NCBI GenBank assembly: GCA_951406725.2
Contig: OX597825.1
Location: 82,956,001 to 83,020,000, forward strand
DNA: 64,000 bases
Direction: 5' to 3'
From: Octopus vulgaris
Lineage: Eukaryota
Shown here: piece after piece, positions 23,603-56,712 of the stretch
How the letters are laid out: the number at the start of each line of letters is the position of its first letter
How positions within the stretch are numbered: position 1 is the stretch's first letter
Position numbers and translations under genes: made by a program
Notes under the pieces: generated by a model
The model's database searches: none
The model's input: the letters and a program-made list of their open reading frames with translations, nothing else
What the model was told of the DNA's origin: nothing

Positions 23603-23645
23603 CCACTACAATTGTTTCTTGTCTTGATCAACAATCTTCAGGTGG
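23603..23645 (-). ncRNA. Minimal type-I hammerhead ribozyme (family H1, inverted copy)
   Basis: Reverse complement of 23684-23726 with one change in stem II (C to U, giving a G-U pair). Confidence 0.85.
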
Positions 23646-23683
23646 ACTTCCAATAAGTCAGTTTCAACTGACTTATTGGAAGT

Positions 23684-23726
23684 CCACCTGAAGATTGTCG
23701 ATCAAGACAAGAAACAATTGTAGTGG
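23684..23726 (+). ncRNA. Minimal type-I hammerhead ribozyme (family H1)
   Basis: CCAC-CTGAAGA-TTGTC(GATCAA)GACAA-GAAA-CAATTG-TA-GTGG: stem I CCAC/GTGG, intact core CUGANGA and GAAA, 5-bp stem II, palindromic stem III, GUA cleavage triplet. Confidence 0.88.
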
Positions 23727-23965
23727 CGGTTTTTTTGACTTTTTATTAAAATTTTATGTATTGATTAAGTCTTTCCTTGTTTGTTTTGCAAAATAGTGGT
23801 TTTGTCTCTAATAATATTATATAATATTTTACTATAAAATTGGATTTAATCCTAAATCTGATTTTTTCCCTGTAAATTTGGATTTATTCCCTAATATTTA
23901 TTATATATATATATATATATATGTGCCTGCGTGTGTGAGTGTGTGTGTGTGTATATATAAATATG

Positions 23966-24022
<57 letters not shown>

Positions 24023-24872
24023 GTATATATATATATGTGTGTGTGTATATCTATCTATCTATCTATTTTTCTATATATGTATATATGTATATATATATAT
24101 ATGCACATATGTATATGTGTGTATCTATGTGTATCAGTATAAAGTGAGGGAAAATGGCTAGAAGTGTGCTGGAATAACAAAAGAGGTTCCCTCCATCAAT
24201 TCAGGAAAGTAAGCAACAGCACAAAAACGATACCAAAAAGAACGACAAAAATATTCTTTGATATATTTGAAAAGGCCGATTTTCTTCAAATCAGATAAAT
24301 CGATGTAGCTAGAAGAGATTAAGAAAGCCAGTTCATAAATTTTAAAAAGTTGTGTATCATGAAAAGGTTAACTGATTTTACCGTTATTATATCTCATTAT
24401 CTAATCAATAAAACGCGAAGAGTCTGCAGAGCCATGTAACACGACGGCAAAGCGCGTGGCTTCAATTCGTCCGCTTCTATGGTTTGAGTTCGCATTCCAC
24501 CGAGGACATCTTTGCCTTTCATGCTTTCGGGGTCGATAAAATATGGTGCCATTTGAGCACGAGGCCCTTCTTCCCAAGGTGTCAGACCTTCTCTACTATT
24601 GAAAGAATGTTTAAAGAGAAAAAAAATAATAATCGGAAATCGGAAGTGTCTTCACAGTTTCTTTTTTTAAACCCGTTAAAAGAAATGATAACCGCCTAGA
24701 AGGTACGATTTTAACATTATTGATATGCTTTTATGAGATTTGTAGAACATTTAGTGTAAGCGCTCTGACGAAACGGATTTGCCGCGGGGTCAGTGTTTTG
24801 GGTAGACTGTCTCGTGTGTCATATTCTTATTTTTACATTTGACGGATATTTCTCCTCATCTTGTTTGTTGTT

Positions 24873-24918
24873 AACACAACGTTTCGGCTGATATACACTC
24901 CAGCCTTCATCAGGTGTC
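24873..24918 (-). ncRNA. Minimal type-I hammerhead ribozyme (family H2)
   Basis: Minus strand reads GACAC-CTGATGA-A-GGCTG(GAGTGTATAT)CAGCC-GAAA-CG-TT-GTGTT: core intact, palindromic A-CG-U stem III, GUU triplet. Confidence 0.85.
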
Positions 24919-25059
24919 TTGGGGAAATTTCGAACCTGGGCTACTAACCCCAAGATTCTGAATTCGATTCCAGGCAGTGACCTGAATAATAATAATGATA
25001 ATAAAAATAACATCGAAAAATACCTTAGGAATGAGTACCCAGGTTCGAAAATTCCTCAA

Positions 25060-25105
25060 GATACCTGATAAAGGCTGGAGGGTATATCAGCCGAAACGTT
25101 GTGTT
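25060..25105 (+). ncRNA. Hammerhead ribozyme motif (family H2), core-mutated
   Basis: GATAC-CTGATAA-A-GGCTG...CAGCC-GAAA-CG-TT-GTGTT. CUGAUGA has become CUGAUAA (G8 to A), so it is predicted to be inactive. Confidence 0.75.
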
Positions 25106-26147
25106 AACAACAAACAAGATGAGGACAAATATCCGTCATATGTAAATCCGTCATATGACAAATATCCGTCATATGTAAATAATGTAACTAATGTTCTTAT
25201 TCCCACTTTCAGAAATTCCGAGTACATGAAAAAGTATTGATCGAATGAGTAATCTGTTAGGTGATGCTCTTGCCGTTTCAGCCTTGCTTCGGTGCGATCT
25301 AGCAGTAATGATTACGACCATCAAAATCCGAGACGTTGAAGTCGGAAATGAAGGCATATACGTTGTAATACACTCTATTTTGTAAGCTCAGAAGTGGAAC
25401 GCCGTAGGTCTATACATCCTAATTCCATATCCATTTCTGCTCAAAACGCATTGGACAGATTAGGACGTTTGACAAACCACCTGCCCCAAAACACCATGCA
25501 CTCGGAATGAGCCTGACATCTCGTGTTTGCGAAGCAGACATTTCAACCAGATAGCCATGGCTATTTTTCAACATTTCCTATATATTTCAAACGTACCACG
25601 TATTAGAAATTATACACAAATGTATTAAATATAATAATATACTCTGTTGAAGTATAACTGAAGTAGTATATTCGAATAAGCAACATGTCTAGAAGGAAAG
25701 GAGATTTAATGGGATTTTATCGGAAATTGGTTGGTCATTAAAAACCTATATTTATGGTCCGCTGCGTCTGTCGCTATTTAGATTAACATTTAATAGTTCG
25801 AAATGAAGTCATCTCACTGCGATTCTAATTATTTCTGCTATGATTGTCATAAAAGTGCAGGAAAGAATAGGACCAACCAAGTAGCCTTTCACTTTACAAC
25901 ACTCTGAGATTTTTACGAAAATTGTGCATCATTCGAAAAATTCTAAACAGTTTACGTATTTCAACGGGTCTATCTATCTATCTATCTAGCTAGCTAGCTA
26001 GCTGACTCTCTATGTGACTCACTCTCTGTTTTCACATTGTCCAGATTGTCCACAAATCTCAACTGATTAAACTTTGTAATTAGAATCATTACACCTCAGC
26101 CACTTGGCCTTGCATTAGTAAAGCCGTTTGTACACATATTGGACTAT

Positions 26148-26505
26148 TACGTGTGGTAAGAAGTTTGCTTTCCAACCGCATGGTTCCGGGTTCAGTACCA
26201 CTGCGTGGCACCTTGGGCAAGTGTCTTCCGCTATAGCATCTGGAAGTTGATAAAGCCCGATTTATATGTGTATATTTATGTATGTGTGTCTTTGTGCTGT
26301 GTTTGCCTTTCCACCATCACTTGACAACCGATATCGGTGCGTTTACGTCTCGTAACTTGGCAGTTCGGCAAAAGAGACCGATAGAATAAGTACTAGGTTT
26401 ACAAAGAATAATTCGTAGGGTCTAGTTCTTCGACTAAAGCCCTCTAAGGTGGTGCACCAGCATGGTCGCAGTGAAAATGAGTGAAACAAATAAAAGAAAA
26501 AGAAA
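26148..26505 (+). mobile_element. SINE family B
   Basis: Head, CCTTGGGCAAGT and tail match the other B copies. Confidence 0.88.
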
Positions 26506-26519
26506 ATATTCGCATGAGA

Positions 26520-26930
26520 AATTCTTACTTGTCCTGGATGTTCAGAAGATTTGCAAATAAAGAAAATGTTGTTGTAATTTCAAAAGTCTGCGGACATCCG
26601 CCGCAAAATATTTGGAAGTATCTGCACCATTACCAGTAGTAGATTTTCATCAGCTTGTGCTTGGAATGATCTTCATCTTGAAAGCATTTCCAAAGATATG
26701 GCTAGGAAGGAACCTTGTTACTTTGGCGACCATCGATAAACGTAGCATGGAAATCGCATCTACACAGTTAAGTGTGTATATCAACAAGATTATTCCTTTG
26801 TGATCACAAACAGAATCTGCAAACTTACAAATAGAGGCCGAGCAATTGGAAGAATACATCACCAGAAGTTCTAATAGCATCACGAACCTTTCATTCATCG
26901 CTGCATCACCAAATATGCATGTCATCGATC
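26520..26930 (-). pseudogene. Possible highly decayed CR1/L2-type LINE ORF2 fragment
   Basis: Frameshifted minus-strand peptides KLMKSTTGNGAD / ILPNILRRMS..F..GQV resemble the pre-RT pattern KSxGPDGI..LLK..LFN..G. Weak. Confidence 0.35.
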
Positions 26931-28534
26931 ATGGAGATATGAAAGGGCAGAGTTAACCACAGCGGGATTTGAACTCAGAATGCAAATATTTGGGACTGAC
27001 AGCAGAAGTAACTTCTTCGGTCACTCTACTGAGCCATCATTTACACATCCCCATAAAAAAATGTTTTCTATTACTTCCTTTAATAATGATTTCCAACATC
27101 AATTATTTATGATAATAACATTACTATTTGCATTATAAGCCATTATGGGGTTATGTGCCATCACTGTGATATTATCAATCTCGACTTGGATTATAAGAAC
27201 CAAATACATCTGCATGATTATTAAACACATCAATAGCATAACCAGATTGTATCAAAAACTGACATGAAAGAGTTCACTTATAAACGATACACATTTGTCG
27301 GAACTTAGATCCAAGCAAAATAAATAGAACGTTACTTATCAGATTCCATTCCTTTTTATTTATTCATTTATATTTTCATTTTTTTAGCCATATTAACATC
27401 GGCATGTCATCCCAAAAGACTGGATTCTAGGTTTATAACTCATACTGCATCCATACAAATAAACACCTGTTAATTACATTCGCGTCATTGCTTTAGATTC
27501 CAGAGTAAAAACGTTACGTTTAATACCTGGGTATCATTCATCTTATATCGATCAGAATTGTTACCAATGTATTACATAGTCGCTGTGCAAATATGGATAA
27601 GAGATAGCAGGATCGATAAGGCATTAAAAATAATAAGTTAAGGGATACGTGTTAAAACCTATTGAACACGATTCGTGATGTTAGAGGACAGATGCATTAA
27701 TACAAATCTTATTTAAACTAAAGTAATAAAATCTCTAACAGTATCGGTACACACTCACATACACACATACATAGAAACAATGCAATAAATTATTGATTCG
27801 CCGTTGGAAACATATTGGAGTTCAAATTTCCAATGAAACTGGAAATACAGAGAATTGAAAAATTAAAATAGATTTTTGGTTCCGTAAAACATTTTTTTTT
27901 TTTTTGGTTTAATGTAACAGGTTTGTAATTCTGGACGTTTAGCTAATATTCACATTGCACTTAATATATCACTGGAAATCCAATAAAAAATTTGGTTACC
28001 GATATCGAATTCTTATATTCTTCGCTTATGACATTACATCATTCTTCTTCCTTTTGTCCTTATGGTATTTTCTGTTCTATATTCTGTATATGTAAAGGGC
28101 TCTCTTCGACTCTTTACATATATATTTGATAAAGTTTATAGTTTATATTAAGCATTACTACTATTGTCGAGTGGATTAAATGAAATAAAAACCGTGAAAC
28201 AACTCTGACGATATGGTAGCAGTCGGAAGGAAAAACTAAAATCGTTGTGAGGTTGAGGAGGAATGATACAACATCACTATACAGATGGCAGAAAAGAAAT
28301 GAACTTCTAAATCAGTAACTAAGTGTACGAATGGCTTGTTGCTCTATTGATTAATATAAGTTATTGGGTTCTGGGTTGATATGGAACATGGCCACATTGT
28401 AAACCAATTATTATGCAGAGGAGATCCTTCATCTAAAGGAAGTTAAGCATTGAGCACAAAAGAAGTGGCAAATGTCAACGGGGCCTTGCGTGGGGAGCAG
28501 TGGATGTTTACGAATATCAACCAATATTAATACA

Positions 28535-55995: not shown

Positions 55996-56029
<34 letters not shown>

Positions 56030-56249
56030 GGTGATGGTGGCAATGCCACCTTGTAGACTTATTCCAGTTTGAATTGAAGGCACCTGATCGATTTTTCTAG
56101 CAAGTCGAGTGACCTATACTGATTCCATTGTAGAATCTTGACCACCGTGAAGACCCGTTGTTTTCGGAGTCAAACACAGATTTTGACAACTCAAACTTTA
56201 CGGATACAAATGGAAACGGTATAACAGCAGAAACAATTATTGATATGAC

Positions 56250-56260
56250 TGTCTGTCTAT

Positions 56261-56320
<60 letters not shown>

Positions 56321-56333
56321 TTGTCTGCCTATA

Positions 56334-56398
<65 letters not shown>

Positions 56399-56399
56399 G

Positions 56400-56446
<47 letters not shown>

Positions 56447-56478
56447 CTTTGTCTGTATATTCTATGTATCTATATATC

Positions 56479-56567
<89 letters not shown>

Positions 56568-56594
56568 GTCTAACCATCTTTCTATCCATCTGTG

Positions 56595-56625
<31 letters not shown>
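56250..56625. repeat. (CTAT)n microsatellite
   Basis: Direct reading. Confidence 0.97.
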
Positions 56626-56666
56626 ATTACATTTGACGAATATTTGTCCTCATCTTGTTTGTTGTT

Positions 56667-56712
56667 AACACAACGTTTCGGCTGATATACTCTCCAGCCT
56701 TCATCAGGTGTC
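56667..56712 (-). ncRNA. Minimal type-I hammerhead ribozyme (family H2)
   Basis: Minus strand reads GACAC-CTGATGA-A-GGCTG(GAGAGTATAT)CAGCC-GAAA-CG-TT-GTGTT, inside an H2 repeat at ~56628-56770. Confidence 0.85.

Follow-up and report, generated by a model that had tools for sequence, protein, structure and literature searches.

Hammerhead ribozyme motifs in a 64-kb stretch of the Octopus vulgaris genome are mostly truncated ends of several Penelope-like elements

We analysed a 64,000-nucleotide stretch of Octopus vulgaris DNA (assembly GCA_951406725.2, contig OX597825.1, positions 82,956,001 to 83,020,000; hereafter the window, with positions counted from its first letter), which carries hammerhead ribozyme motifs of seven families, A to G. 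The motifs are real, and they are mostly truncated ends of several Penelope-like elements (PLEs), a known arrangement. It is very probable that the motifs belong to the pseudo-long terminal repeats (pLTRs) of several PLE families, of which A, B, F and G continue elsewhere in the genome into PLE coding sequence, and that the window copies are short cDNA products of the PLE reverse transcriptase (RT)-endonuclease. The original prediction had read these motifs as a non-autonomous Penelope/retrozyme system, a radiation of short self-cleaving elements mobilised by PLE enzymes. Its PLE part held, since open reading frames (ORFs) of PLE type (RT and GIY-YIG in A, B and F, the endonuclease in G) were found next to the same sequences; its non-autonomous part failed for these four families, and only C and D are retrozyme-like.

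Hammerhead motifs in the window and in shuffled DNA

A strict and a relaxed type-I hammerhead descriptor were run on the window and on two sets of 150 dinucleotide shuffles (whole window; 500-bp blocks). The strict descriptor gave seven matches, at 23603 (-), 23684 (+), 24873 (-), 30242 (-), 33378 (+), 35246 (-) and 56667 (-), compared with a mean of 0.05 in whole-window and 0.03 in 500-bp-block shuffles and a maximum of one in each set of 150. The relaxed descriptor added 31217 (+) and 43035 (+), nine matches in all; its mean in shuffles was 0.24-0.35 and its maximum three. A descriptor requiring a paired base before stem II returned only two matches, because an unpaired base must be permitted there.

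The window motifs have the CUGANGA, GAAA and UH core, stems I and II and a palindromic stem III, with four copies degenerate or split; none has a U3-A8 core. The core of the motif at 25060 (+) is mutated (CTGATAA), stem II at 33145 (-) is broken, and at 51215 a tandem insertion of a short interspersed nuclear element (SINE), spanning 51243-51640, interrupts the motif, which picks up again at 51641. At three sites two motifs lie head to head on opposite strands, as an inverted pair rather than a tandem dimer. All the motifs listed in the original prediction were present at their positions, and the excess over shuffled sequence and the division into seven families were likewise borne out. The stem II proposed at 35246 proved to be a chance refold of a degenerate copy, the stem II of family F being different. 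The output of an Rfam search was dominated by microsatellite matches; of its 385 rows, the 150 listed included no hammerhead family.

In 290 kb of sequence flanking 145 other loci, a non-random sample of the genome, the relaxed descriptor found 22 motifs against 0-3 in shuffles. The density in the window (nine per 64 kb) is within about twofold of that in these non-random flanks, indicating that the window is no special cluster. A rough extrapolation from the same flanks gives a total on the order of 100,000 such motifs in the 2.8-Gb genome (227 contigs). The motifs of all loci fell into 39 clusters, among which some singletons are chance. Pairing across families is imposed by the descriptor; a few homologous variants, compared by eye, seem to keep their own pairing, among them one of family A altered on both sides of stem II (locus L295; loci elsewhere in the genome carry L numbers) and variants of family F at core positions 3 and 8.

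Copy number, age and insertion pattern

A first look at the genome gave lower bounds of at least 994 candidates for A, 2,095 for B, 2,812 for C, 11 for D, 580 for E, 3,835 for F and 2,606 for G. Up to 29 of the best 40 loci per family were examined, a sample biased toward likeness to the window copy. Median divergence from the family consensus was 0% for E, 0.5% for A, 3.8% for G, 4.7% for B, 4.8% for F and 5.8% for C.

A (TA)n tract lay beside the 3' end in 28/28 loci of A, 29/29 of E, 25/29 of F, 21/29 of C and 20/29 of G, with a background of 0.09-0.19. The association with (TA)n microsatellite that had been proposed from the window thus stood for these five families and not for B (2/29, background 0.08). 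Similarly, most motifs had been placed in islands of 150-350 bp, a range that leaves out G (about 820 bp) and F (about 420 bp). An upstream inverted arm was present at 23/28 loci of A, 22/29 of B and 29/29 of E, the last count being favoured by the query used, and at 6/29 of C, 4/29 of F and 4/29 of G. Partial-tandem or inverted 5'-truncated insertions in the style of PLEs, with an optional tail, occurred among the copies. PLEs are already known to leave inverted pairs, to carry a tail on one side and to insert at (TA)n.

Family A and its spliced short copies

In locus L302, a tandem unit of 6.33 kb carries an intact ORF of 841 codons and, behind an 1,845-bp GT-AG intron, the A hammerhead; L303 holds a copy 98.6% identical. 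RT motifs, a GIY-YIG-type end and Hydra-clade motifs are readable in the translation. The Hydra-clade features were DKT, a CxCx5C linker, CxxC, CxH and the (TA)n target, with RIKWK rather than an exact RWK, and they point to a Hydra-type PLE. The intron (L302:378-2222) holds internal repeats of the element's own pLTR upstream region (75-87% identity).

The window carries the end of this PLE as two arms. The inverted, 5'-truncated arm without a tail (23506-23663, minus strand) has its hammerhead at 23603-23645, with a predicted cut after 23607, and its spliced junction at 23655/23654. The direct arm (23666-23903, plus strand) has the spliced junction at 23674/23675, the hammerhead at 23684-23726 with a predicted cut after 23722, and a tail of about 75 bp. 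Both terminate in (TA)n. The intron ends 13 nt before the ribozyme core in the long form, and both window arms bear the spliced junction; their lack of the 1,845-bp intron shows an RNA step.

Across the genome, the spliced junction had 329 exact matches and the unspliced one 296. In the first 100 listed of each kind, the median gap of inverted pairs was 10 nt for spliced copies (29 pairs) and 3,567 nt for unspliced ones (27 pairs). Nearly all spliced arms (34/36) end no more than 23 nt from the splice donor. Position -23 itself is the end of four arms; three of them follow a G that the template lacks, which microhomology could explain in two cases. Two longer spliced copies (L293, L294) mean that the 5' limit is not absolute. 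We infer that the spliced A mRNA would start near -23 and that the enzyme would copy only the leader, through an internal start at the pLTR end. Such an internal start has been shown in vitro for another PLE (PMC11167929; here and below, published systems are described from the available portions of the cited texts). Spliced copies with a common 5' limit go beyond what was found in print. An earlier idea that A lacks a long form, based on two and five matches, was wrong; the long form has the intron and one base difference there.

Family B and its tRNA-like head

Family B follows the end of a GIY-YIG-type ORF in all 15 loci fetched, of 40 scored with the ORF part alone as query, directly in 14 of them, and an RT domain (PF00078, E 1e-9) lies upstream. 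These features suggest that B is the end of a Poseidon-type PLE. Compared with 32 of the genome's own tRNAs, which represent few isotypes, its 74-nt head could be aligned over the full length, and tRNA-Arg(TCG) scored highest (z 7.8). A- and B-box-like motifs in the head retain tRNA spacing, and between the head and the end of the ribozyme the sense consensus, where well supported, contains no four consecutive Ts.

A 25-mer from the start of the head gave 2,521 matches and the ORF-head junction 435; short copies outnumber ORF-attached ones by about 5:1. The first 20 head matches formed an unbiased set, in which 15 copies start 0-7 nt before the head, five enter the ORF and none starts in between; three of the five were assigned by eye, and those three are one duplicated locus. 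Both ribozyme halves were present in 10 of the 20 matches and an intact motif in four. Seven of the 15 short ends have no fold-back, and in the other sample 5/29 ends fall on the same A at -2. The short copies have a defined 5' end at the head and share their 3' end with the autonomous partner.

Three unstranded RNA-seq runs from a related species were examined for B. Depth was level across the 340 nt leading up to the head, rose about twofold at the head and was about fivefold at the ribozyme. Loose read ends piled at the first base of the head (in one of the three raw-read runs and in contigs), and the reads had two 3' ends 32 nt apart. Both strands were represented equally, and no pile of molecule ends was seen at the cut site in these runs, where fragmented libraries may hide it. 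Equal strands and the lack of ends at the cut site indicate that the B reads show embedded copies, not Pol III (RNA polymerase III) transcription or cleavage.

As judged from the genomic copies, a B pLTR with a tRNA-derived head probably spawned a PLE-mobilised SINE with a putative Pol III start. A tRNA-headed pLTR with short offspring is beyond what was found in print.

The window has five B features. An inverted arm (24832-24940, minus strand) with an intact hammerhead (24873-24918, predicted cut after 24878) is paired with a direct arm (24938-25147, plus strand) consisting of the 3' half of the tRNA-derived head, with a B-box-like motif at about 24960-24971, an (AAT)n linker and the hammerhead with mutated core (25060-25105). 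A second inverted 3' arm, with a tail, lies at 51102-51200 (minus strand), beside a direct arm at 51202-51721 (plus strand) whose hammerhead is broken in loop II by the insertion described above. A single copy at 56627-56781 (minus strand) has an intact hammerhead (56667-56712, predicted cut after 56672).

Families F and G

Three overlapping loci link an RT plus GIY-YIG frame to the F ribozyme, with RT motifs and a PF01541 match (E 0.002). The G ribozyme is separated by about 2 kb of T-rich sequence from a sense Hydra-type endonuclease upstream (PF01541, E 0.001); the chain covers the endonuclease and not the RT core, and the Hydra motifs were read from the endonuclease only (translations of L296 and L297). 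F and G, too, are ends of PLE families. The F core is G3-C8 in 19/29 copies, G3-G8 in 8/29, A3-G8 in one and deleted in one, and the window copy has C3-G8. A family that is mostly G3-C8 lies beyond what was found in print.

In the window, F is the 3' end of its PLE (35084-35502, minus strand; degenerate hammerhead 35245-35293). G is represented by the final 0.8 kb of its long T-rich 3' region (42345-43169, plus strand), with a hammerhead at 43035-43124 that has a long stem II and a predicted cut after 43118, and by a 3' fragment with a tail that is truncated within stem II (46579-46722, minus strand) and was absent from the original prediction.

An antisense ORF upstream in G was rejected as coding sequence: it showed no codon periodicity (1/54 blocks at p<0.05) and had no Atlas match, and the sense GIY-YIG lies further upstream. 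Transposase remnants that we take to be mariner-like are present at L227:4094-5120 and L225:7865-8500, and one of them interrupts the family F PLE.

Families C, D and E

Families C and D consist of non-coding monomers in head-to-tail arrangement. The C monomer is 357 bp long, and sequence from downstream recurs upstream at 336-359 bp in 7/29 loci; D is old, with a period of about 330 bp. Two complete ribozymes in tandem were found neither among the 29 C loci, which have partial tandems only, nor among the D loci compared by BLAST. These are probably retrozyme-type monomers that borrow the same PLE enzymes. The window copy of C is a partial, circularly permuted monomer (30074-30337, minus strand; hammerhead 30242-30286, predicted cut after 30248). 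That of D is a permuted monomer of about 330 bp with 69-80% identity to its relatives (31108-31424, plus strand; degenerate hammerhead 31216-31261).

Family E is very young. Its 5' end is fixed and lies about 15 nt ahead of the core; 14 copies chosen for a differing upstream base all end at the same point. Its window copy comprises an inverted arm without a tail (33107-33201, minus strand; hammerhead 33145-33182, stem II broken) and a direct arm with a tail and a (TA)n end (33353-33520, plus strand; hammerhead 33378-33415, predicted cut after 33411). The spacer between them (33202-33352), with a 17-bp tandem duplication, has no match in the other 39 scored copies; this foreign DNA was probably captured, possibly by template switching. 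A candidate upstream part of E in L229 proved to be an unrelated old repeat.

Other elements

An eighth family is represented on the reverse strand of L304, at about 3100-3850, by a true tandem retrozyme: two head-to-tail units of about 360 bp, both with a hammerhead. Core position 4 is often C in a further hammerhead family, which forms a cluster of 11 that includes L049, L070 and L304; some E copies have the same U4-to-C change. Loci L153-L160 (for example L156:1078-5113) hold a young PLE, at least 4 kb long, whose RT plus GIY-YIG frame has 781 codons and a Neptune-type linker. Many copies of it are listed, 91-99.6% alike, and its pLTR core is only U3-A8-like, with a weak stem I. This abundant element was considered as the master of the window families and rejected: it has no pLTR sequence in common with them, and the adjoining A and F pieces are neighbours in shared targets.

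Within the window, tandem copies of an abundant SINE-like repeat lie at 19855-20221 and at 51243-51640, the latter pair inside the family B ribozyme loop. C-terminal protein fragments at 8257-8600 and 59498-59821 (both plus strand) adjoin (AAT)n arrays; they resemble a non-LTR retrotransposon with a restriction-like endonuclease.

Proposed origin of the copies and ribozyme activity

In the mechanism we propose, the GIY-YIG endonuclease would nick AT-rich DNA and the RT would begin internally, close to the end of the pLTR, at either of two sites; which one is used would decide whether the copy has a tail. The RT may then halt early or run to the 5' end of the RNA, and second-strand synthesis or a fold-back would yield a head-to-head inverted pair. 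RNAs starting within the pLTR would give mini-elements with a fixed 5' end, as in A, B and E: from a spliced leader in A, from the tRNA-derived head in B, probably by a Pol III start that would make it SINE-like, and from an unspecified start in E.

Cleavage by these ribozymes is probably weak and takes place in dimers or with help from protein, as described for published PLE hammerheads (PMC4209133, PMC11167929), and most window copies are probably inert. Computed stem III pairing in trans ranged from -0.2 to -10 kcal/mol. A dimer in cis from the paired motifs, as had been envisaged, cannot form since the pairs lie on opposite strands; the read-through RNA of an inverted pair would instead be a long hairpin.

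Discussion

Several results weigh against the interpretation of the window motifs as PLE ends, or against parts of it. Only 13/29 B, 15/29 C and 19/29 G copies still pass the descriptor, and the active monomer fold was the minimum-energy fold in none of the nine window motifs. No intact ORF of B, F or G was present in the loci fetched. Pfam did not recognise the 841-codon ORF of A, and the scores of the F and G endonucleases were below its cut-off. The clades of A (Hydra), B (Poseidon) and G (Hydra, by endonuclease motifs) were assigned by motifs and not by a tree. Among the top matches searched, E had no coding master and C and D had no contiguous link to a PLE ORF.

It is very unlikely that all seven families are non-autonomous retrozymes replicating as self-cleaved circular RNAs. 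The circular permutation of the 357-bp C monomer, the period of about 330 bp in D, the tandem dimer at L304 and the occurrence of such elements in mussel (PMC7229834) fit that idea. However, the passage into PLE coding sequence refutes it for A, B, F and G, and the copies of A, B and E are mostly inverted pairs rather than direct tandems, with 5' ends upstream of the ribozyme and not at the cut site. The near-perfect, long inverted repeats within (TA)n could also suggest miniature inverted-repeat transposable elements or fold-back DNA transposons bearing the motif in their terminal repeats by chance. We consider this highly improbable, because the arms are unequal, the centres variable and the tail on one side only; for A it is refuted by the spliced junction, the loss of the intron requiring an RNA step. 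Chance matches in AT-rich repetitive DNA can practically be dismissed: degenerate copies occur at 31217 and 35246, and shuffles scanned with the relaxed descriptor reach three matches, but the strict count against shuffles, together with hundreds to thousands of candidates in six of the seven families, refutes this explanation.

For B, a more serious alternative is that the short copies are ordinary 5'-truncated PLE insertions that pile up at a hairpin, with no Pol III transcript and no SINE. Eight of the 15 short ends are fold-back palindromes at a small hairpin, which could stop the RT without a Pol III start. RNA reads were equal on both strands and revealed no molecule starts, and ARAGORN with default settings, Rfam and phage BLAST did not call the head as a tRNA. 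On the other side stand the seven ends without fold-back, the recurrent end at -2, the box-like motifs at tRNA spacing and the lack of a four-T run. We regard truncation at the hairpin as possible, though it is not the explanation we favour; a PLE-mobilised SINE remains our preferred reading of the short B copies.

Most of what we describe is PLE biology familiar from earlier work, here in a genome that has apparently not been examined before. Inverted 5'-truncated copies, optional tails and (TA)n targets are PLE hallmarks (Craig et al. 2021, PMC8557442), and minimal hammerheads in opposite-strand pairs have been read as truncated PLEs (Cervera & de la Pena 2014, PMC4209133). The octopus motifs resemble the pLTR hammerheads of endonuclease-bearing PLEs in these two papers in their type-I minimal form, unpaired base before stem II and palindromic stem III, in the many families per genome, and in their inverted 5'-truncated copies, optional tails and (TA)n targets. 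Opposite-strand pairs 100-700 bp apart, an intron ending beside the ribozyme and a U3-A8 core variant are further points of likeness. Unlike in those papers, tails of A and E are about 75 bp rather than 30-40 bp, family F is mostly G3-C8, and about half of the A junctions are spliced and the copies very short, whereas the papers stress intron retention. The A unit is also longer (6.3 kb) than Hydra-clade PLEs, which are under 3 kb (PMC8557442).

Families C and D resemble non-LTR retrozymes in being non-coding, 330-360 bp long and circularly permuted, with one type-I hammerhead (Cervera & de la Pena 2020, PMC7229834). The link of PLE ends to retrozymes is already in print: a preprint that sampled no mollusc, in its available portions, derives retrozymes from PLE pLTRs (Li et al. 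2026, 10.64898/2026.07.22.740005). Unlike the elements defined there, no C or D copy carries two complete tandem ribozymes.

Family B is like the schistosome Sm-alpha and Sj-alpha elements (PMC2770079, PMC6765202; Sj-alpha is cited in PMC3653858) in having a tRNA-derived, Pol III-type head followed by a hammerhead. Those elements are described as tandem, and the available portions of the papers name no mobilising partner; in contrast, the head and ribozyme of B recur, identical, at the end of a Poseidon-type PLE with coding sequence in the same genome, and the short copies have PLE-type inversions and tails. In the anole Poseidon element PAc (Frangieh et al. 2024, PMC11167929), as proposed here, two internal RT starts explain the optional tail and targets are AT-rich. 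Insertion of PAc does not require its ribozyme, which cuts only when protein is present, and RNA-seq showed no ends at the cut site, as for B. Unlike here, no tRNA head or spliced mini-elements are described in the available portions of that work, while all of our own mechanism is drawn from genomic copies. The available main text of the 2026 octopus repeat annotation (PMC13282606) contains neither 'hammerhead' nor 'ribozyme', and the portions of the literature available outside subscription journals and Repbase contained no PLE-mobilised tRNA SINE, tRNA-headed pLTR or spliced PLE mini-elements.

Taken together, a broader proposal would be that a Poseidon-type PLE captured a tRNA-derived Pol III promoter in its pLTR, giving a Penelope-mobilised hammerhead SINE about fivefold over its ORF-attached parent; that a young Hydra-type PLE makes half of its ends from a spliced mRNA leader; and that any RNA started in a pLTR may become a mini-element, which would explain retrozymes and the schistosome alpha-type SINEs. 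We judge the chances of this whole proposal to be evenly balanced.

Many hammerhead families in an animal genome are ordinary on their own. The G3-C8 core that is natural in family F corresponds to a swap by which activity is partly restored in vitro (PMC11167929). Family A is a young, intact element, with copies 0.5% from the consensus, in which PLE intron retention and loss can be studied, and its spliced, start-bounded mini-elements are genomic evidence in favour of PLE reverse transcription being initiated internally. SINEs normally pair with long interspersed nuclear elements. If the interpretation of B is true, a SINE with a Penelope partner, parent and offspring in one genome, would be a new pairing, and it would suggest a mover for the schistosome hammerhead SINEs.

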